In this document: positions 1 to 55,335 of the stretch, one piece after another
Layout: each line of letters begins with the position of its first letter
How positions within the stretch are numbered: the stretch's first letter is position 1
Source: Escherichia coli
Lineage (GTDB): Bacteria > Pseudomonadota > Gammaproteobacteria > Enterobacterales > Enterobacteriaceae
Direction: 5' to 3' (one strand)
Assembly (NCBI RefSeq): GCF_016026235.1
Contig: NZ_CP065613.1
Length of the DNA stretch: 64,000 nucleotides
Translations under genes and position numbers: made by a program
Notes under the pieces: model-generated
What the model saw: only the letters and a program-made list of their open reading frames with translations
Told to the model about the DNA's origin: nothing
Databases searched by the model: none

Positions 1-705
1 TCGCCGACGCCGGACGAACCGGGCCATACTCTGGGCGGCTACTCACAACAGATCGTCGTTCATGAGCGATATGTTCTGCGTATTCGTCACCCGCAAGAGC
101 AGCTGGCGGCGGTGGCTCCTTTGTTGTGTGCAGGGATCACCACGTATTCGCCGCTACGTCACTGGCAGGCCGGGCCGGGTAAAAAAGTGGGCGTGGTCGG
201 CATCGGCGGTCTGGGACATATGGGGATCAAGCTGGCCCACGCGATGGGGGCGCATGTGGTGGCATTTACCACTTCTGAGGCAAAACGCGAAGCGGCAAAA
301 GCCCTGGGGGCCGATGAAGTTGTTAACTCACGCAATGCCGATGAGATGGCGGCTCATCTGAAGAGTTTCGATTTCATTTTGAATACAGTAGCTGCGCCAC
401 ATAATCTCGACGATTTTACCACCTTGCTGAAGCGTGATGGCACCATGACGCTGGTTGGTGCGCCTGCGACACCGCATAAATCGCCGGAAGTTTTCAACCT
501 GATCATGAAACGCCGTGCGATAGCCGGTTCTATGATTGGCGGCATTCCAGAAACTCAGGAGATGCTCGATTTTTGCGCCGAACATGGCATCGTGGCTGAT
601 ATAGAGATGATTCGGGCCGATCAAATTAATGAAGCCTATGAGCGAATGCTGCGTGGTGATGTGAAATATCGTTTTGTTATCGATAATCGCACACTAACAG
701 ACTGA
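1..705 (+). CDS. yahK: Zn-dependent alcohol/aldehyde dehydrogenase (MDR family), C-terminal part; 5-prime end lies outside the window
   Basis: Frame is open from base 1 to the stop at 703-705; Rossmann motif GVVGIGGLGHMG; conserved position upstream of yahL. Confidence 0.85.
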   Translation, partial: SPTPDEPGHTLGGYSQQIVVHERYVLRIRHPQEQLAAVAPLLCAGITTYSPLRHWQAGPGKKVGVVGIGGLGHMGIKLAHAMGAHVVAFTTSEAKREAAKALGADEVVNSRNADEMAAHLKSFDFILNTVAAPHNLDDFTTLLKRDGTMTLVGAPATPHKSPEVFNLIMKRRAIAGSMIGGIPETQEMLDFCAEHGIVADIEMIRADQINEAYERMLRGDVKYRFVIDNRTLTD

Positions 706-947
706 AAAAATTAATAAATACGCTGTGGTTTAACATATTAACTTCGCTCTCCACTTAACTTTTTAGTTAAGGAGAGCGAAATAATATCAAAGTAGCAGTA
801 AAACCTATAACGTAAATTCAAATTGTTAAATTAACTCCCTCCAGTACACAATACTTCACACGTTAGTTATGAGCGATTTCTGATAGTGCCTGGTTTAATC
901 AGCGCTTTATTATCTGCGACGTTTATTTTTATTTAAGAGAGATCGCG

Positions 948-1763
948 ATGATATCATTAAAAGCTCCGCACAATAATTTGATGCCATATACGCAACAAAG
1001 CATACTTAATACGGTTAAAAACAATCAGTTACCAGAGGATATCAAAAGCTCCCTGGTTTCCTGTGTCGATATATTCAAGGTTTTGATTAAACAATATTAT
1101 GATTATCCTTATGATTGTCGTGATGATTTAGTCGATGACGACAAACTCATTCATCTCATGGCTGCCGTACGAGACTGTGAGTGGTCAGACGATAACGCAC
1201 TCACCATAAATGTGCAGTTTAATGATTTCCCAGGATTTTATGACTGGATGGATTACCCTGATCACCCGGTTAAGTTTGTTTTTCGCATACTTGAAAATCA
1301 AAAAGGGACAGTTTGGGTATATGACCAGGATGATGCGTTTCTTGATATTAAAGCAAATGTGCAGGCTGGACGCTTTACCGGGCTTAAGAAATTAGTGCAG
1401 TTTATCAATTCAGTGCGAACAGATTGCAAATGTATTCTTCTTGAACGCCATATGCCTTTGCTGAGACTTTTCCCTAAAGGGAAAGAGTGTATCCATGTGG
1501 AAAAATGGCTTCGCGAAATGTCGTCTATGCCGGAGACAGACGCGCCCATTAAGCAGGCGCTTGCGCATGGATTATTATTACACTTAAAAAATATCTACCC
1601 TGTTTTTCCTGAATCACTGGTGATGTTATTGCTCTCTGTTCTGGACGTAAAAACATACAGAGATGATGCGCGATTAAATCAATGGATAACTAATAGAGTG
1701 CAGGAATTAGGTGACAGATATTATCCTGTAAATAAGCACGTTAAAATCCGCTACACTCTTTAG
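948..1763 (+). CDS. yahL: Hypothetical protein YahL (271 aa), no recognisable domain
   Basis: 271-aa ORF in a markedly AT-rich segment, preceded by an AT-rich leader; size and position match yahL. Confidence 0.75.
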   Translation: MISLKAPHNNLMPYTQQSILNTVKNNQLPEDIKSSLVSCVDIFKVLIKQYYDYPYDCRDDLVDDDKLIHLMAAVRDCEWSDDNALTINVQFNDFPGFYDWMDYPDHPVKFVFRILENQKGTVWVYDQDDAFLDIKANVQAGRFTGLKKLVQFINSVRTDCKCILLERHMPLLRLFPKGKECIHVEKWLREMSSMPETDAPIKQALAHGLLLHLKNIYPVFPESLVMLLLSVLDVKTYRDDARLNQWITNRVQELGDRYYPVNKHVKIRYTL

Positions 1764-1989
1764 TTCAGAAAGGGTTCCACCTGCAAGTTGTTATTCCACC
1801 AGAGAGTGAATCGCAATGCAGGTAATCATTTCATCTGTATATCTGTATGCCAACTGGCATTCCATCTCTTTTTTCGCCGATATTTTGTTGTGATCGGCGA
1901 CACTTCGCTTAAAAAAACACCAGCAGTGGTTTCGCAGCTATGCGGTGTATAAAAAATGATCTTATGCAGATGTTTTGTGAATGTGTGGG

Positions 1990-2017
1990 TTGACATTCAT
2001 ATGAAAAAAATCATAAT
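1990..2017 (+). promoter_or_regulatory. Candidate sigma-70 promoter (TTGACA, 16-bp spacer, CATAAT) upstream of yahM
   Basis: TTGACA at 1990-1995 and CATAAT at 2012-2017 read directly from the sequence; not tested. Confidence 0.3.
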
Positions 2018-2175
2018 TCCATCATGTTTGTGTGGGGTCTTTTCTGTATCTTACGCATCGCACTCAAGCCTGACAGAAAATATGCTGTAAGGCTCATATC
2101 AAAAACCGCCATTAGCTCATCAGGAAGAGCAGACGACAACCAGGATTGTTGTATGGTACGGGGTTCGAGGCCTCG

Positions 2176-2421
2176 ATGGCGGTCCAACTTTTCAAAACTC
2201 TTCTGAATCAGATCCCCTTATTATCATCCCTGCAAAGTGGAACATTGCCATTGTTTGGCTATTCAGGACGGGTCAGACCAATGAAAAAAGCCCACACAGG
2301 GGAGAGTGGGCTGAAATGGGAAGCTAAAGACTCAAGTAAACTTATCGGAAATAAGGACCACGCATTACGGGGGCTATCATCGCCGATGGTCGGGATTCGG
2401 CAAATCAGGTTGATTACGTAG
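2176..2421 (+). CDS. yahM: Small hypothetical protein YahM (81 aa)
   Basis: ORF 2146-2421 with an internal ATG at 2176 giving the 81-aa product MAVQLFKTLLNQ...; start choice uncertain. Confidence 0.5.
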   Translation: MAVQLFKTLLNQIPLLSSLQSGTLPLFGYSGRVRPMKKAHTGESGLKWEAKDSSKLIGNKDHALRGLSSPMVGIRQIRLIT

Positions 2422-2437
2422 AGAGTAAATTATCTGC

Positions 2438-3109
2438 TCACCGCTGCGTCACCCCTTCGTAAATCAGGCGTAGCGCGAATACACCAATAATTGCACCAAT
2501 AACCCGACTGGCAACGCGTTGCATACGCCCATAAGCACGACGCACAGCGGGCAAAGAAAACGCCTGACTAAGAAAGACTCGCCAGATAATTGATGCGAGT
2601 ACAATCCCCGCCCAGGCCATTAAACGTGCCCATGTTGGTGTTTCGGCATTTAATGTTACTGAGAAAATACTAATAAAAAATAAAACGGTTTGCGGGTTAG
2701 AGAGATCGGTAATTAATCCGCGGCGAAAAAAGACATACCAGGGGGCGTTAATCGGTTGTTGTAGTGTGCTCATTTGCGGTGTTGACTGGCGGCGCATGCT
2801 GCACCACGCAAACCATAAGAGATAAGCGCCGCCGACGATTCTGATAAGCGAAAAAATCTCCTCACACTGCGTAATTAGTGTTGCAAGACCAAACAAACCC
2901 AACCCGGAATAAAATGCATCGCCCAGCGCCACGCCCAGCCCGGTCAGCACCCCTGCGCGTCGACCGGAAGCCAGGCTGGTTTGTACTACCACAAAGAGAT
3001 TGGCTCCCGGATTAAAAAAAGTAATCACGAACAGTCCTACGGTCAGGTAAACGGCGTGCAAAGGATCCATAGTGATTTCATCCATAAATAAGTGAACTAA
3101 CTTCATCAT
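2438..3109 (-). CDS. yahN: LysE/RhtB-family amino-acid exporter (223 aa)
   Basis: 223-aa hydrophobic multi-helix ORF; conserved position between yahM and yahO. Confidence 0.85.
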   Translation of the reverse strand: MMKLVHLFMDEITMDPLHAVYLTVGLFVITFFNPGANLFVVVQTSLASGRRAGVLTGLGVALGDAFYSGLGLFGLATLITQCEEIFSLIRIVGGAYLLWFAWCSMRRQSTPQMSTLQQPINAPWYVFFRRGLITDLSNPQTVLFFISIFSVTLNAETPTWARLMAWAGIVLASIIWRVFLSQAFSLPAVRRAYGRMQRVASRVIGAIIGVFALRLIYEGVTQR

Positions 3110-3255
3110 ATTTCTACCAAAAATAATCGGGTGCGAGAGAGATCACAAAGTGTCTTATTTCCGGTTACTGGCGTTTATGCCCTGACTGAACTAATTATTA
3201 ATCAACCCAATAATGTCGGTGGGTGATAGTGTGATAACAACTCTGGAGCCGTAAT

Positions 3256-3531
3256 ATGAAAATAATCTCTAAAATGTTAGTCGGTGCGTTAGCGTTTGCC
3301 GTTACCAATGTCTATGCCGCTGAATTGATGACCAAAGCGGAATTTGAAAAAGTTGAATCGCAGTATGAAAAAATAGGTGATATTTCAACCAGCAATGAAA
3401 TGTCGACTGCAGATGCAAAAGAAGATTTGATCAAAAAAGCGGATGAAAAAGGGGCTGATGTGTTGGTACTGACCTCCGGTCAAACTGACAATAAGATCCA
3501 CGGCACGGCAAATATTTATAAGAAGAAGTAA
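3256..3531 (+). CDS. yahO: Small periplasmic DUF1471-family protein (91 aa) with signal peptide
   Basis: N-terminal signal peptide [21 protein letters not shown]; 91 aa. Confidence 0.85.
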
Positions 3532-3628
3532 TTCTGAATCCTATGTAAACATCTCCGATGCGTAAGTTTATCGGTGATCATCTATTGAAATTTATGCCGG
3601 ATAAAGCGTTCGCGCTGCATTCGGCAGT

Positions 3629-5212
3629 TCAGCTTTTCAGCCGCCGCCAGAACGTCGTCCGGCTGATGCCTAAATAATTCGCCGCTGCTGTTTTATCGCC
3701 ATTAAATTTCTCCAGTGCCTGTTGTGGTGTCAGTAAGCGTGGAGCGGGAGTTTTCGCCGACTCGCGCGCCAGTTCCGGCAGTAGCAGCTGCAAAAATTGC
3801 GGCGTTAAATCCGGCGTCGGTTCCACACTTAAAAATAGCGCCAGTCGCTCCATCATATTGCGCAGTTCACGAATATTGCCCGGCCAGTCGTAGTGCACCA
3901 GCACGGTTTCGCTTGCCTGTAATCCCTGGCGTAATGCGGCAGAAAACGGGGCGGAGAGCGCCGCCAGAGACACTTTTAAAAAGCTTTCCGCCAGCGGCAG
4001 AATATCCGCCACCCGCTCGCGCAGTGGTGGCAATTGCAGACGCAAAATACTCAGCCGATAAAACAGATCACGGCGAAAACGTCCTTGCCGCATATCTTCT
4101 TCCAGATTGCAGTGAGTGGCGCTAATGACCCGTACATCTACCGGAACAGGCTGATGCCCGCCGACGCGGGTGACCTCTTTTTCTTCCAGCACCCGCAGCA
4201 GCCGGGTCTGCAACGGCAGCGGCATTTCGCCTATCTCGTCAAGAAACAGCGTGCCACCGTGGGCAATTTCGAACAGCCCGGCGCGACCTCCGCGTCGCGA
4301 GCCGGTAAACGCCCCTTCCTCATAGCCAAACAGTTCTGCTTCCAGCAGCGATTCGGCTATCGCCCCGCAGTTGACGGCAACAAACGGATGCGACTTTTTG
4401 CCCTGTCGCGCATCGTGGCGGGCAAAATATTCCCGATGAATCGCCTGGGCCGCCAGCTCTTTACCCGTCCCCGTTTCCCCCTCAATCAACACCGCTGCAC
4501 TGGAGCGGGCATACAGCAAAATAGTCTGCCGTACTTGTTGCATCTGTGGTGATTGACCGAGCATATCGCCCAGCACGTAACGAGTTCTCAGGGCGTTGCG
4601 GGTGGCATCGTGAGTGTTATGGCGTAACGACATGCGCGTCATATCCAGCGCATCGCTGAACGCCTGGCGCACGGTGGCGGCGGAATAGATAAAAATTCCG
4701 GTCATTCCGGCTTCTTCTGCCAAATCGGTAATCAGCCCTGCGCCGACCACCGCTTCGGTGCCGTTAGCTTTTAGCTCGTTAATCTGCCCGCGTGCGTCTT
4801 CCTCGGTAATGTAGCTACGTTGGTCGAGGCGCAAATTAAAGGTTTTTTGAAACGCCACCAGCGCTGGAATGGTTTCCTGATAGGTGACAACGCCGATAGA
4901 AGAGGTGAGTTTTCCGGCTTTTGCCAGTGCCTGTAACACATCGTAGCCGCTCGGTTTAATCAAAATAACTGGCACTGACAGGCGGCTTTTCAGGTACGCG
5001 CCGTTAGAGCCAGCAGCGATGATGGCGTCACAGCGTTCGTTTGCCAGTTTCTTGCGGATGTAGGTCACTGCTTTTTCAAAGCCAAGCTGAATAGGGGTAA
5101 TGTTCGCCAGGTGATCAAACTCGAGGCTGATATCGCGAAACAGCTCGAACAGGCGCGTTACAGATACCGTCCAGATAACCGGTTTGTCGTCATTAAGCCG
5201 TGGTGGATGTGC
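3629..5212 (-). CDS. prpR: Sigma-54-dependent transcriptional activator of propionate catabolism (528 aa)
   Basis: AAA+ sigma-54 activator motifs GETGTGKE and GAFTGS, C-terminal HTH; divergent from prpB; start taken at MAHPPRL (the ORF track extends 4 codons further upstream). Confidence 0.9.
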
Positions 5213-5391
5213 CATAGCGCACCGCAAAGTTAAGAAACCGAATATTGGGTTTAGTCTTGTTTCATAATTGTTGCAATGAAACGCGGTGAAACATTGCCTG
5301 AAACGTTAACTGAAACGCATATTTGCGGATTAGTTCATGACGTTATCTCTAACAAATTGAAATTAAACATTTAATTTTATTAAGGCAATTG

Positions 5392-5406
5392 TGGCACACC
5401 CCTTGC
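5392..5406 (+). promoter_or_regulatory. Sigma-54 (-24/-12) promoter for prpBCDE
   Basis: TGGCAC-N5-TTGC read at 5392-5406, about 45 bp upstream of the prpB start, facing prpR. Confidence 0.8.
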
Positions 5407-5452
5407 TTTGTTTTATTAACGAAAATAACAAGTTGATAACAAAGGATGGGCT

Positions 5453-6343
5453 ATGTCTCTACACTCTCCAGGTAAAGCGTTTCGCGCTGCACTGACTAAA
5501 GAAAATCCATTGCAGATTGTTGGCACCATCAACGCTAATCATGCGCTGTTGGCGCAGCGTGCCGGATATCAGGCAATTTATCTCTCCGGCGGTGGCGTGG
5601 CGGCAGGGTCGCTGGGGCTGCCCGATCTCGGTATTTCTACTCTTGATGACGTGCTGACAGATATTCGCCGTATCACCGACGTTTGTTCGCTGCCGCTGCT
5701 GGTGGATGCGGATATCGGTTTTGGTTCTTCTGCTTTTAACGTTGCGCGTACGGTGAAATCGATGATTAAAGCCGGTGCGGCGGGATTGCATATTGAAGAT
5801 CAGGTTGGTGCAAAACGCTGTGGTCATCGCCCGAACAAAGCGATCGTCTCGAAAGAGGAGATGGTGGATCGGATCCGCGCGGCGGTGGATGCGAAAACCG
5901 ATCCTGATTTTGTGATCATGGCGCGCACCGATGCGCTGGCGGTTGAAGGACTGGATGCGGCGATCGAGCGTGCGCAGGCCTATGTTGAAGCTGGTGCCGA
6001 GATGTTGTTCCCGGAGGCGATTACCGAACTCGCCATGTACCGCCAGTTTGCCGATGCGGTGCAGGTGCCGATCCTCGCCAATATTACCGAATTTGGCGCA
6101 ACGCCGCTGTTTACCACCGACGAATTACGCAGCGCCCATGTCGCAATGGCGCTGTACCCGCTTTCAGCGTTCCGCGCCATGAACCGCGCCGCTGAACATG
6201 TCTACAACGTCCTGCGTCAGGAAGGCACGCAGAAAAGTGTCATCGACACCATGCAGACCCGCAACGAGCTGTACGAAAGCATCAACTACTACCAGTACGA
6301 AGAGAAGCTCGACGATCTGTTTGCCCGTAGCCAGGTGAAATAA
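5453..6343 (+). CDS. prpB: 2-methylisocitrate lyase (296 aa)
   Basis: Isocitrate-lyase/PEP-mutase family sequence including KRCGH motif; first gene of the prp operon. Confidence 0.95.
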
Positions 6344-6384
6344 AAAACGCCCGTTGGTTGTATTCGACAACCGATGCCTGATGC

Positions 6385-6470
6385 GCCGCTGACGCGACTT
6401 ATCAGGCCTACGGGTGTACTGAACTGTAGGTCGGATAAGACGCATGGCGTCGCATCCGACAACAATCCCG
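6385..6470. repeat. BIME made of two inverted REP elements in the prpB-prpC spacer
   Basis: gcctgatgcg...cttatcaggcctac and gtaggtcggataag...gcatccgac palindromic units. Confidence 0.7.
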
Positions 6471-6502
6471 ACCCTACAAATGATAACAATGACGAGGACA
6501 AC

Positions 6503-7672
6503 ATGAGCGACACAACGATCCTGCAAAACAGTACCCATGTCATTAAACCGAAAAAATCTGTGGCGCTTTCTGGCGTTTCGGCGGGCAATACGGCGCTCTG
6601 CACCGTGGGTAAAAGTGGCAATGACTTGCATTACCGTAGTTACGATATTCTTGATCTGGCGGAACATTGCGAATTTGAAGAAGTGGCGCATCTGCTGATC
6701 CACGGCAAACTGCCGACCCGTGACGAACTCGCCGCTTACAAAACGAAACTGAAAGCCCTGCGCGGTTTACCGGCTAATGTGCGTACTGTGCTGGAAGCCT
6801 TACCGGCGGCGTCGCACCCGATGGATGTTATGCGCACCGGCGTTTCCGCGCTCGGCTGCACGCTGCCAGAAAAAGAGGGGCATACCGTCTCCGGCGCGCG
6901 GGATATTGCCGACAAACTGTTGGCGTCGCTGAGCTCGATTCTTCTCTACTGGTATCACTACAGCCATAACGGCGAACGCATCCAGCCGGAAACCGATGAC
7001 GACTCAATAGGCGGTCACTTCCTGCATCTGCTGCACGGCGAAAAGCCATCGCAAAGCTGGGAAAAGGCGATGCATATTTCGCTAGTGCTGTACGCCGAAC
7101 ACGAGTTTAACGCCTCCACCTTTACCAGTCGGGTGATTGCGGGCACCGGCTCTGATATGTATTCCGCGATTATTGGCGCGATTGGCGCACTGCGCGGGCC
7201 GAAGCACGGCGGGGCGAATGAAGTGTCGCTGGAGATCCAGCAACGCTACGAAACGCCAGACGAAGCCGAAGCCGATATCCGCAAGCGGGTGGAAAACAAA
7301 GAAGTGGTCATTGGTTTTGGTCATCCGGTTTATACCATCGCCGACCCGCGCCACCAGGTGATTAAACGTGTGGCGAAGCAGCTCTCGCAGGAAGGCGGCT
7401 CGCTGAAGATGTACAACATCGCCGATCGTCTGGAAACGGTGATGTGGGAGAGCAAAAAGATGTTCCCCAATCTCGACTGGTTCTCCGCTGTTTCCTACAA
7501 CATGATGGGCGTTCCCACCGAGATGTTCACACCACTGTTTGTTATCGCCCGCGTCACCGGCTGGGCGGCGCACATTATCGAACAACGTCAGGACAACAAA
7601 ATTATCCGTCCTTCCGCCAATTATGTTGGACCGGAAGACCGCCAGTTTGTCGCGCTGGATAAGCGCCAGTAA
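6503..7672 (+). CDS. prpC: 2-methylcitrate synthase (389 aa)
   Basis: Citrate-synthase family; start set at MSDTTILQN, because the longer ORF from 6374 reads through the REP element. Confidence 0.93.
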
Positions 7673-7705
7673 ACCTCTACGAATAACAATAAGGAAACGT
7701 ACCCA

Positions 7706-9157
7706 ATGTCAGCTCAAATCAACAACATCCGCCCGGAATTTGATCGTGAAATCGTTGATATCGTCGATTACGTGATGAACTACGAAATCAGCTCCAAAGT
7801 GGCCTACGACACCGCACATTACTGCCTGCTCGACACGCTCGGCTGCGGTCTTGAAGCTCTCGAATACCCAGCCTGTAAAAAACTGCTGGGGCCAATTGTC
7901 CCCGGCACCGTCGTACCAAACGGCGTGCGCGTCCCCGGAACTCAGTTCCAGCTCGACCCCGTCCAGGCGGCATTTAACATCGGCGCGATGATCCGTTGGC
8001 TCGATTTCAACGATACCTGGCTGGCGGCGGAGTGGGGCCATCCTTCCGACAACCTCGGCGGCATTCTGGCAACGGCAGACTGGCTTTCGCGCAACGCGGT
8101 CGCCAGCGGCAAAGCGCCGTTGACCATGAAACAGGTGCTGACCGCAATGATCAAAGCCCATGAAATTCAGGGCTGCATCGCGCTGGAAAACTCCTTTAAC
8201 CGCGTCGGCCTCGACCACGTTCTGTTAGTGAAAGTGGCTTCCACCGCCGTGGTCGCCGAAATGCTTGGCCTGACCCGCGAGGAAATTCTCAACGCTGTTT
8301 CGCTGGCGTGGGTGGACGGTCAGTCGCTGCGCACCTATCGCCATGCGCCGAACACCGGCACGCGTAAATCCTGGGCGGCGGGCGATGCCACTTCCCGCGC
8401 GGTACGTCTGGCACTGATGGCGAAAACGAGCGAAATGGGTTACCCGTCAGCCCTGACTGCGCCGGTGTGGGGCTTCTACGACGTCTCCTTTAAAGGTGAA
8501 TCGTTCCGCTTCCAGCGCCCGTACGGTTCCTACGTTATGGAAAATGTGCTGTTCAAAATCTCCTTCCCGGCGGAGTTCCACTCCCAGACGGCAGTTGAAG
8601 CAGCGATGACGCTCTATGAACAGATGCAGGCAGCAGGCAAAACGGCGGCGGATATCGAAAAAGTGACCATTCGCACCCACGAAGCCTGTATTCGCATCAT
8701 CGACAAAAAAGGGCCGCTCAATAACCCGGCAGACCGCGATCACTGCATTCAGTACATGGTGGCGATCCCGCTGCTATTCGGGCGCTTAACGGCGGCAGAT
8801 TATGAGGACAACGTTGCGCAAGATAAACGCATTGACGCCCTGCGCGAGAAGATCAATTGCTTTGAAGATCCGGCATTTACCGCTGACTACCACGACCCGG
8901 AAAAACGCGCCATCGCCAATGCCATTACCCTTGAGTTCACCGACGGCACACGATTTGAAGAAGTGGTGGTGGAGTACCCCATTGGTCATGCTCGCCGCCG
9001 TCAGGATGGTATTCCGAAACTGGTCGATAAATTCAAAATCAATCTCGCGCGCCAGTTCCCGACTCGCCAACAGCAGCGCATTCTGGAGGTTTCTCTCGAC
9101 AGAACTCGCCTGGAACAGATGCCGGTCAATGAGTATCTCGACCTGTACGTCATTTAA
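7706..9157 (+). CDS. prpD: 2-methylcitrate dehydratase (483 aa)
   Basis: MmgE/PrpD family, 483 aa, operon position. Confidence 0.95.
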
Positions 9158-50199: not shown

Positions 50200-51174
50200 T
50201 TAACGCAGAATCTTCTTCTCAGCCAGATCCAGCGCAAAGTAGCTGAAAATCAGATCCGCACCTGCACGCTTAATCGAACCTAAGCTTTCGAGCACCACTT
50301 TCTCTTCATCTATAGCACCCGCCAGCGCGGCGAACTTAATCATCGCGTACTCACCGCTCACCTGATACGCGCCAATCGGCAATTCAGTACGTTCACGCAG
50401 CTCACGCACGATGTCGAGGTACGCTCCAGCAGGTTTAACCATCAGGCAGTCTGCGCCCTGGGCTTCATCCAGCAGTGACTCACGAATCGCCTCACGACGG
50501 TTCATTGGGTTCATCTGATAGCTTTTGCGGTCGCCTTTTAATGCGCTTCCGGCAGCTTCACGGAACGGGCCATAAAAGGAGGAGGCGAACTTGGTCGAAT
50601 ACGACATAATCGCCGTATCTTTAAAGCCCGCAGCGTCCAGCGCCTGGCGAATTGCCTGTACCTGGCCGTCCATCGCGGCGGAAGGGGCGATGAAGTCTGC
50701 GCCTGCAGCAGCTGCAACCACGGCTTGCTTGCCTAAATTTTCCAGAGTCGCGTCGTTGTCGACGCCATGCTCGCACAGCACACCGCAGTGACCGTGAGAA
50801 GTGTATTCACAGAAACAAGTGTCTGACATGACGATCATTTCTGGCACAGTCTGCTTGCAGATGCGCGACATACGCGCCACCAGTCCATCTTCCCGCCAGG
50901 CGTCGCTGCCGGTTTCATCGGTATGGTGAGAGATGCCGAAAGTCATCACGGAACGAATACCGGCGTTGGCGATGCGTTCAATTTCGCGTGCCAGATGTTT
51001 CTCTGGAATGCGCATCACGCCTGGCATGGCTTCAACGGCTTTGTAGTCGTCAATTTCTTCTTCAACAAAGATCGGCAACACCAGGTCGTTAAGGCTAAGT
51101 GTTGTCTCTTCAAACATAGCGCGCAGCGCAGGAGATTTGCGCAGGCGACGAGGGCGTTGGATTAAGTCTGTCAT
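50200..51174 (-). CDS. hemB: Porphobilinogen synthase (delta-aminolevulinate dehydratase), 324 aa
   Basis: Start at [13 protein letters not shown]; ALAD family. Confidence 0.95.
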
Positions 51175-51699
51175 GGTCTGCCTGATGTTTGTGGAATTAA
51201 GGTGCACAGTATACCTGAAGCGGGGCAGGAGTGTTTTACGAAAGTTGTCGTGATGTTGACAAGAAGAGAATGAAAGAGAGACCAGGACATCTTTGTAATA
51301 GAAATAGCAATAATTTCATATTCACTGAAAATATTTTTAATTTTTATTTATAGCCATAGATTATTGTTTTTGGGGATTTGGTGACGTTTTCAAAAAGTGA
51401 ATAACTTAAAGTTCATTGCTTATTGATACATTATTTGTCTGTTTTAGTTGTTTTATATTTTCATGGTCTATGTTTTAAAATTAACGCTTTCATTAACGTA
51501 TTGAAATATTGTGTTTTTGTTATTTATTTCTGTGTGTGTGTTCACGTGCTTTATATATGTCCGCAATCGGACTTAGGGGAAAGAATAATTGAACCATTCC
51601 TCTATAACGCCGCATAATCGTCAACGCGAAACATAATATGTTTTCTATGCATTGATAATTGATGGATCAACTTATTACGTCCCTGAGGAGGGATGACAA

Positions 51700-54645
<2,946 letters not shown>

Positions 54646-54646
54646 A

Positions 54647-55335
<689 letters not shown>

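Follow-up and report, generated by a model that had tools for sequence, protein, structure and literature searches.

What lies between yahK and yahN on the Escherichia coli chromosome, and did it arrive there in one piece? We addressed this question in a 64,000-nt stretch of contig NZ_CP065613.1 (hereafter the window, to which all coordinates refer unless another record is named), in which positions 706-2437 form a conspicuously AT-rich tract that a preliminary description had interpreted as an old horizontally acquired insert carrying yahL and yahM. Comparison with related loci makes it likely that this tract is a patchwork of at least two separately acquired pieces set between yahK or yahJ and yahN, and not one island. 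The older piece would be a transcription unit, so far found only in Escherichia, in which a sigma-70 promoter gives rise to a transcript from position 2024, with a tRNA-like element about 80 nt downstream. The younger piece would be the yahL cassette, placed between a hairpin that follows yahK and the promoter, with yahL itself later removed by one clean 835-bp deletion that is now present in about 20% of E. coli. More tentatively, the core of the locus may be a domesticated phage pseudo-tRNA that was acquired early in Escherichia and has remained unchanged since, with XtpA as a de novo open reading frame (ORF) that arose through replacement of an ancestral TAG by TGG, and with yahM as a by-product.

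Distribution of the two pieces across Escherichia

A module of approximately 1968-2195, made up of the promoter and the tRNA-like element (Table 1), lies beside yahN in six Escherichia lineages. In addition to E. coli, it is found in a divergent lineage deposited as E. coli (CP057162.1 and SCPM-O-B-8794), in Escherichia sp. E1V33, in E. albertii, which serves as the outgroup, and in two further lineages that we label L035/L036 and L037. Only E. coli and the divergent lineage carry the yahL cassette, which E1V33, E. albertii, L035 and L037 lack.

The arrangement of the surrounding sequences differs from lineage to lineage. The divergent lineage carries yahK, yahL, the downstream region and yahN, with 83-88% identity in the three genes. 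In E1V33, yahK is followed by the hairpin, a spacer of about 100 bp and then the promoter from the equivalent of position 1968, with no yahL, and unrelated sequence of about 55 bp occupies the site of the cassette. In E. albertii, the hairpin and the promoter region follow yahJ, and both yahK and yahL are missing. In L035/L036 and L037, the promoter region directly adjoins genes with EH_Signature and SNF2 helicase domains on one side, and yahN follows the module on the other; the genes with these domains look like a Zorya defence system. At the L035/L036 locus (1231-3867 and 4955-8633), as well as in L037, the module is located between yahN and the Zorya-like genes, and an autotransporter gene is located between yahO and yahN. 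The locus is an insertion hotspot. No module was found at this position in Salmonella bongori or Citrobacter, where unrelated genes come within 57-80 nt of yahN.

Table 1. Features of the region between yahK and prpR, in window coordinates
Feature	Position	Strand	Basis and remarks
Near-consensus sigma-70 promoter, TTGACA-16-CATAAT	1990-2017	+	11/12 positions; sole site above 9/12 in 600-3700
xtpA ORF, 60 aa, 5′ part of leaderless transcript	2024-2206	+	K-12 b4845, 345252-345434, maps exactly
tRNA-like element, 81 nt	2106-2186	+	ARAGORN tRNA-Ser(gga); sole tRNA-like gene in the whole window
yahL cassette, about 1.1 kb	800-1940 (approximate boundaries)	+	39.2% GC; BLAST and alignments to related loci
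yahL coding sequence, 271-aa orphan protein	948-1763	+	RefSeq annotation
Presence/absence polymorphism, exactly 835 bp	942-1776		From 6 bp before the yahL ATG to 13 bp past the stop
Annotated yahM ORF, 81 aa	2176-2421	+	ATG within the 3′ acceptor strand of the tRNA-like element
Intrinsic terminator of yahN, stem GCCCAC/GUGGGC then UUUUUU	2283-2312	minus	Fold of the minus strand
Imperfect hairpin, TTCGCTCTCC..GGAGAGCGAA	743-780	+	Begins 38 nt past the yahK stop; 16 pairs, 2-nt bulge
yahN, LysE-family exporter, right-hand flank	2438-3109	minus	Pfam LysE, E 6e-60
yahO	3256-3531		38.8% GC
prpR	3629-5227	minus	

An invariant tRNA-like element

The most conserved part of the module is the tRNA-like element itself. 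Not one of its 81 columns varies across four lineages, compared with 24 of the 77 columns in the leader (2024-2100) and 61 of 95 in the next 95 nt, and the probability of finding 81 invariant columns at the rate of the leader is about 7e-14. In adjacent yahN, third codon positions are just 60-65% identical (dS, the synonymous divergence, is about 0.7). The element is also identical in L035; the copy in L037 has a single additional C in its 3′ tail, and many genes in that assembly are broken. The promoter shows two variable columns out of 28 across four Escherichia lineages. Within E. coli, a 90-nt query comprising the element and 9 flanking nucleotides finds an identical sequence in about 92% of genome records, and 115 of 120 metagenome contigs carry an identical element; among the variants listed, three of the four single-copy metagenome variants and one genome variant alter the terminal CCA or its spacing.

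At minimum energy the element folds into a cloverleaf in which the acceptor stem has 7 bp, the loop of the D arm contains GG and that of the T arm reads UUCGAGG; U73 is present and the CCA is encoded. The central arm is non-standard, having a 7-bp stem and a 6-nt loop, CCAGGA, and four extra nucleotides follow the D stem. In the ARAGORN register, the anticodon loop reads CAGGAUU, with an A at position 33, and the arm is not a canonical anticodon arm. The Rfam tRNA model yielded no match at E values up to 10 in 600-3700, and the K-12 RefSeq record has no tRNA feature at this place. Because the core and the CCA are intact, providing all that a tRNA requires for an L-shaped fold and for processing, and the anticodon arm is unusable, a pseudo-tRNA that binds a tRNA-recognising factor would be the most plausible product: a processed, stable RNA, acting as a decoy or as a ligand for a tRNA-binding factor. 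Pseudo-tRNAs and tRNA-like regulators are known elsewhere, such as the tRNA-Other of Bacillus cereus and the tRNA-like domain of transfer-messenger RNA (tmRNA). These likewise keep a tRNA core for folding and processing without normal decoding, although they have no sequence relation to the element described here.

Reading frames overlapping the element

The preliminary description treated the DNA around the promoter as intergenic, although it is in fact an annotated and published transcription unit, xtpA, an additional gene in the K-12 annotation. The near-consensus promoter itself was correctly recognized in that description. It drives xtpA as a leaderless transcript starting at 2024: a start is expected 7 nt past the -10 hexamer, whose last base is 2017, so the predicted start coincides with the A of the xtpA ATG. 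Codons 28-54 of xtpA are encoded by the tRNA-like element. A 2022 paper by Muto et al., to go by its title, reportedly presents xtpA as a leaderless mRNA that contains a tRNA-like sequence and encodes a peptide regulating the expression of GcvB. The paper is cited in the RegulonDB reference list (PMC10767902). The published gene and the one in the window agree in locus and in ORF length, and the geometry of the promoter predicts the leaderless start; the difference is that our comparative data single out the RNA element, not the peptide, as the conserved unit.

Could the XtpA peptide nevertheless be the functional product, with the tRNA-like sequence conserved because it encodes the peptide or stabilises the mRNA? 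This is the strongest of the alternatives, and we consider it unlikely though well worth keeping in view. It has in its favour the K-12 annotation, the title just mentioned and the integrity of the ORF within E. coli, where each of the six sequences inspected has an intact frame of 57-60 aa, as do 107 of 118 metagenome contigs. Coding constraint, however, cannot account for the complete lack of synonymous change over 27 codons next to a yahN gene with the dS given above. Moreover, the frame is broken in four of the six lineages: its start reads ATG TTT GCG TAG in two lineages and ATG TTT ACA TAG in E. albertii, placing a stop at codon 4 in all three, and the ATG is replaced by AAG in L037, yet the RNA element in these lineages is identical or nearly so. 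The frame is open only in E. coli, where codon 4 is TGG (2033-2035), and in E1V33, where it is AAG, and the N-terminal 27 residues of these two differ at 9 positions. Even among the E. coli metagenome contigs, there are 8 of 118 in which the 82 nt upstream of the element (equivalents of 2024-2105) start one base off the register of the xtpA ATG; the common out-of-register variants have lost 1 nt of the leader (CCTTACGCATCG -> CCTTAGCATCG), a change that would frameshift xtpA and leave the tRNA-like element intact.

Judged by these frame states, xtpA is not conserved as a protein-coding gene in related species, and we prefer to regard the RNA as the selected product because of the pattern of conservation, in which an invariant RNA is overlaid by unstable ORFs. 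The xtpA ORF would then be a younger addition, which arose in E. coli and, independently, in E1V33. A function for the K-12 peptide is not contradicted by this account, as it may represent a recent layer on top of an older RNA.

The second annotated frame, yahM, fares worse. The preliminary description counted it among the genes of the insert, but it does not behave as a conserved gene: all 81 codons are open in E. coli only, and even there the frame is shifted in AVS0754, DETEC-P793, AB_24_S34 and CFT073, the last being representative of a wider type, so that only non-B2 E. coli have it intact, and its equivalents remain open for just 11-31 codons in the four other lineages compared. It covers, on the opposite strand, the intrinsic terminator and the conserved 3′ untranslated region (UTR) of yahN, and the terminator region is 98% identical in the divergent lineage. 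To judge from these comparisons, yahM is probably not a conserved protein gene, and would be largely an annotation placed over the yahN terminator and 3′ UTR. According to a preprint, a yahM promoter is active and is repressed by IHF. A sub-threshold Rfam match to the ‘Betaproteobacteria toxic sRNA’ in this region reflects just the shape of the yahN terminator, and a potential long-range pairing of 2029-2044 with 2283-2298 was, upon inspection by eye, absent from the divergent lineage, and was taken as due to chance. On the yahN strand, the complement of the tRNA-like element (2101-2186) closes with ATGGCGG followed by TTTTT, and this complement could serve as a yahN terminator in L035 and L037, which lack the 2312-2283 hairpin.

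Kinship with phage tRNAs

We sought relatives of the module in phages. In a blastn search of 1961-2440 against 50,697 phage records, matches were confined to query positions 135-231, corresponding to approximately 2095-2191 of the window, and came from 32 lambdoid or Shiga toxin (Stx)-converting records, with E values down to 2e-17 (phiP27); plasmid and prophage-like records also matched, with an E value of 2e-19 for pHX138.261ft_1. In every phage or prophage record inspected, the matching sequence is the middle member of the ileZ-argN-argO tRNA cluster upstream of stx. The true argN, exemplified by phage PA8, is 75% identical to the chromosomal element, shares its D arm and has the identical acceptor stem, U73 and CCA, with a T arm that differs in one loop base. 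The phiP27 type (NC_003356, 17240-17321) is closer, at 85-86% identity. It shares with the chromosomal copy, as does the sequence called “tRNA-OTHER” by the Prokaryotic Genome Annotation Pipeline (PGAP) in pHX138.261ft_1, the 4-nt insertion in the D arm and the AGACGACA...TTGTTG arm, and both differ from that copy only in the central loop, which is CCAGGA in the chromosomal copy and CGAUAACAGGG in the phiP27 type. In contrast to the members of the phage cluster, the chromosomal copy stands alone, under its own sigma-70 promoter, at a fixed site by yahN, and has yahL and yahN for neighbours.

The two types also keep to their own genomic settings. All 14 IMG/VR contigs sharing the 5′ half of the element are of the phage type and display the ileZ-X-argO context, and no match to the chromosomal type was found in 2.9 million viral contigs; the 120 metagenome contigs with the chromosomal type all resemble the ordinary Escherichia chromosomal locus. 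Overall, the alignments indicate that the tRNA-like element shares its ancestry with the tRNA of the phage argN slot. Since the phage variant occupies the argN slot, a phage-to-chromosome direction of transfer is favoured, and would place the origin of the element in a phage tRNA cluster. Relics of ileZ and argO, suggested by MAFFT at 2024-2105 and 2187-2300, respectively, were rejected, as they scored no better than 500 dinucleotide shuffles; the best relic score, at 3/500, did not survive the 32 tests.

The yahL cassette

The second piece of the tract contains a gene of different character. Between the window and the divergent lineage, yahL shows no indels in 816 nt, a dS of 0.63, a nonsynonymous divergence (dN) of 0.11, a dN/dS ratio of 0.178, and 80% amino acid identity; the dN/dS values of its neighbours in the same comparison range from 0.014 to 0.045. 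By this measure, yahL is a real protein-coding gene, under purifying selection that is relaxed but clear. As already stated in the preliminary description, the protein has no recognisable domain, and indeed none of the Pfam, NCBIfam, PHROG or PADLOC families matched it. Weak Pfam matches (SDH_protease at E 0.0018, and DUF2931) fall far under the curated cut-offs, and a relationship to DUF2686, the family of the similar-sized “signature” orphans YjfZ and YjiC, was discarded at an hhalign probability of 0.1%. The AlphaFold2 model, of moderate quality (predicted local distance difference test, pLDDT, 66; predicted template modelling score, pTM, 0.65), combines a long helix with a five-strand sheet and a C-terminal half made up of helices, and gave no specific fold match.

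Relatives of YahL are exceedingly rare. A word-indexed search of 5.8 billion proteins returned E. coli-type sequences only, and the sole addition from an exhaustive HMMER comparison with 1.84 billion representatives was P0027, a distant relative with 26% identity over the full length and an E value of 1e-10. Its gene, with a GC content of 31.5%, is located in an accessory island of another E. coli (locus L030, 8001-8828; GCA_009799345.1, WTUQ01000002.1), having iadA/yjiG-type genes as neighbours and, on the other side, genes for a 1350-aa invasin-like protein, a TPR-type chaperone and an SseC-like type III translocon component. Another candidate, P0010, which appeared as a 48%-identical YahL homologue, is an artefact of a noisy assembly of ordinary E. 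coli, with 96% DNA identity and many indels.

AT-rich, lineage-restricted DNA of enterobacteria is xenogeneic and typically silenced by H-NS. YahL resembles the orphans encoded by such DNA in its low GC content, narrow distribution and lack of homologues. A literature search found no usable H-NS chromatin immunoprecipitation (ChIP) or expression data for yahL. Promiscuous polymerase binding is typical of AT-rich DNA. In a genomic SELEX (systematic evolution of ligands by exponential enrichment) list, the yahK-yahL-yahM entry has binding peaks for RNA polymerase holoenzymes containing three different minor sigma factors (PMC5493296). The K-12 coordinate listed for this site, 343660 (PMC5493296), is placed inside yahL by our analysis. 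YahL has been published as a ‘conserved signature protein’ of E. coli and Shigella (PMC11057252); it differs from that portrayal, and from the orphans with which it was compared above, in that yahL is not universal in E. coli and has no mobility genes alongside.

These properties bear on whether yahL was acquired at all, or whether AT-rich non-coding DNA in an E. coli ancestor gave rise to it de novo, a scenario we regard as improbable. An orphan with an intergenic-like GC content at third codon positions (GC3, 39%), no family or fold match and no signatures of mobility would be compatible with such an origin. However, its 271 codons, a predicted fold with an alpha/beta domain and a helical domain (pTM 0.65) and a dN/dS of 0.18 speak against emergence from non-coding sequence, and the existence of a full-length 26% paralogue in another accessory island implies that an older family has circulated on mobile DNA. 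Furthermore, the spacer of about 100 bp in the lineages without yahL holds no remnant of the ORF. Acquisition of yahL as a cassette, a gain and not a loss from the other lineages, would fit these observations.

Within E. coli itself, yahL is missing from many genomes. BLAST comparison with strain AVS0754 placed breakpoints at 941 and 1777, and the alignment was confirmed by eye. Of 5426 complete E. coli genomes, 1073 contain a full-length match to a 120-nt probe spanning the junction, nearly always with at least 99% identity. Of the 5178 complete genomes matching the query 600-2500, only 4020 do so over 80% or more of its length. The uropathogen CFT073 (phylogroup B2; NC_004431.1, about 434,430-435,052) is without yahL, as are 17 of 100 evaluable gut-metagenome contigs. 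The uniformity of the junction points to a single deletion event behind the yahL-less E. coli. Because the divergent lineage has yahL, its absence within E. coli is a secondary loss. In the divergent lineage (locus L006, 6819-6957), a 121-bp insertion is located just after the yahL stop (after window position 1766), a few bases from the breakpoint at 1776/1777, and its position suggests that the junction near the yahL stop may be fragile.

Base composition and the question of a single island

In its first 5 kb the window comprises the 3′ part of yahK (1-705), yahL, yahM, yahN, yahO and prpR. Over 1-3700 it is 99.9% identical to FDAARGOS_943 and 99.0% to K-12, and gene names and coordinates agree with the RefSeq annotation. 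The claim that the segment is AT-rich relative to its neighbours held up well: the GC content is 40.0% for 706-2437 and 41.2% for 948-2437, compared with 52.5% for the whole window, which is not within a few percent of the average, and only 0.4% of sliding 1732-bp windows are as low in GC as 706-2437. By part, it amounts to 39.2% in yahL, 32.6% in the 706-947 intergenic region, 42.2% in 1764-2175 and 46.7% in yahM, with 53.9% in the yahK fragment and 49.0% in yahN. The conspicuous AT-richness ascribed to yahL was likewise confirmed, as this gene has the minimum GC (z about -3.2) and the minimum GC3 (39%, z about -2.7) among the window's 49 ORFs of 150 aa or more.

The old horizontal insert proposed on this basis survives in part. 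Foreign composition, the lineage-restricted yahL and a partial phage ancestry support it, but a single insert comprising yahL and yahM does not agree with a promoter/tRNA-like module present in six Escherichia lineages and a yahL cassette present in two. The tract has deviant composition and codon usage and a patchy distribution with an empty site in relatives, as genomic islands do, and homologues on mobile elements exist for the tRNA-like element, in phages; for yahL, there is just the one 26% paralogue in the accessory island of another E. coli, and no PHROG match. One old horizontally acquired island spanning 706-2437 has on its side the AT-richness of the whole stretch and the RefSeq annotation of both genes. 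It is nevertheless quite improbable, given that cassette and module occur independently across lineages (E1V33, E. albertii and L035 have the module without yahL), that the 835-bp deletion takes yahL alone, that yahM is not conserved, and that there is neither an integrase nor flanking repeats.

Equally improbable, in our estimate, is the opposite extreme, in which no horizontal transfer took place and the low GC content merely marks long-resident AT-rich regulatory DNA and weakly expressed genes, as in yahO. Intergenic DNA is normally AT-rich, and the low-GC tract indeed extends past 2437, since yahO and the yahN-yahO spacer are equally AT-rich; the order yahN-yahO-prpR is kept in S. bongori and Citrobacter. 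Because AT-rich yahO and the spacer are held in place in these genera, low GC by itself is no proof of recent acquisition. However, yahL is missing at the locus from four Escherichia lineages and from both other genera and has no homologues elsewhere, and the tRNA-like element has clear phage relatives. The least probable alternative is that the element is conserved for a role at the DNA level, be it integrase attachment or bidirectional termination for yahN, and not for its RNA product: the adjoining cargo does vary by lineage (yahL cassette, Zorya-like genes, yahK present or absent) and the yahN-strand complement ends in the terminator-like run noted above, but no integrase or duplicated 3′ tRNA fragment was found, the variable DNA lies mainly on the 5′ (promoter) side although integrases usually target the 3′ end, 81 invariant bases are more than a terminator needs, and a strong conserved promoter transcribes the element.

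Points against the proposed history

Several observations weigh against the history that we consider likely, namely, a patchwork of an older RNA module of phage ancestry and a younger yahL cassette. The case for putting the RNA first is a comparative one, and in K-12 the peptide may well be functional, as the title of the published work implies. The cloverleaf is not markedly stabler than shuffled sequences (z -1.9), and no covariation can be counted, as the element never varies. The phage homology is restricted to about 90 nt, with flanking ileZ and argO undetectable. The region 600-3700 contains no integrase or transposase ORF and no flanking direct repeats, just short repeats of a chance type. 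Finally, E. fergusonii, E. marmotae and E. ruysiae were not identified among the sampled loci, and both the gain of yahL as opposed to its loss and the ancestral TAG in xtpA would follow from parsimony with E. albertii taken as the outgroup.

The hairpin after yahK and other features of the window

To the left of the cassette lies the long imperfect hairpin, which the preliminary description had also noticed, at 745-778, and which maps to 743-780. Its fold has an energy of -22.4 kcal/mol (z = -7.9), no shuffled sequence being equally stable, and two inverted repeats map here; it is single-copy in the window, with zero expected by chance. In Escherichia sp. E1V33 the basal stem is kept downstream of yahK, and in E. 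albertii it is kept downstream of yahJ. The hairpin lies outside the yahL cassette and stays behind the upstream gene in lineages that have no yahL. It is not an intrinsic terminator, as neither strand has a U tract and the stem is followed by AAUAAUAUC; a terminator scan of 600-3700 found none.

The left flank is variable too: a sugar ABC transporter operon precedes yahK in the closest strain and in the divergent lineage, and yahI/yahJ are found there in K-12 and CFT073. A palindromic element resembling repetitive extragenic palindromic (REP) sequences follows yahO at 3595-3668, with a sub-threshold Rfam match to naRNA4 (28.6 bits; gathering score 59.5). A second low-GC area of the window, 50650-55335, contains genes for a 974-aa autotransporter (51700-54624, 46.8% GC) and a 222-aa winged-helix protein (54667-55335, 40.8% GC).

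Implications

Much of what is described here is already known: yahL, yahM and xtpA are annotated, and earlier publications cover both the tRNA-like sequence in xtpA and the confinement of YahL to E. coli and Shigella. As first noted, the region is an ordinary, annotated AT-rich orphan region, to which the phage ancestry and the conservation at the RNA level add a modest new angle. In the searchable literature, which does not cover the full text of Muto et al. 2022, we found nothing on the relation to phage argN, on the invariance of the RNA as against the instability of the ORFs, or on the frequency of the yahL deletion.

The deletion has a practical side. yahL has been proposed as a quantitative PCR (qPCR) marker for water quality, present in all E. 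coli (PMC11057252). The frequency of the deletion contradicts its use as a universal marker, and such assays would undercount the lineage that bears it. In addition, xtpA and yahM look young or spurious, which bears on dissection of the link between XtpA and GcvB and on the inclusion of yahM in gene lists.

With regard to the biology of the genus, the element is as invariant across Escherichia species as a true tRNA, which suggests that the RNA has a function in the host. If the history proposed here is true, the locus would provide a clean example of a phage tRNA turned into a host RNA gene, with a leaderless peptide born on top of it.

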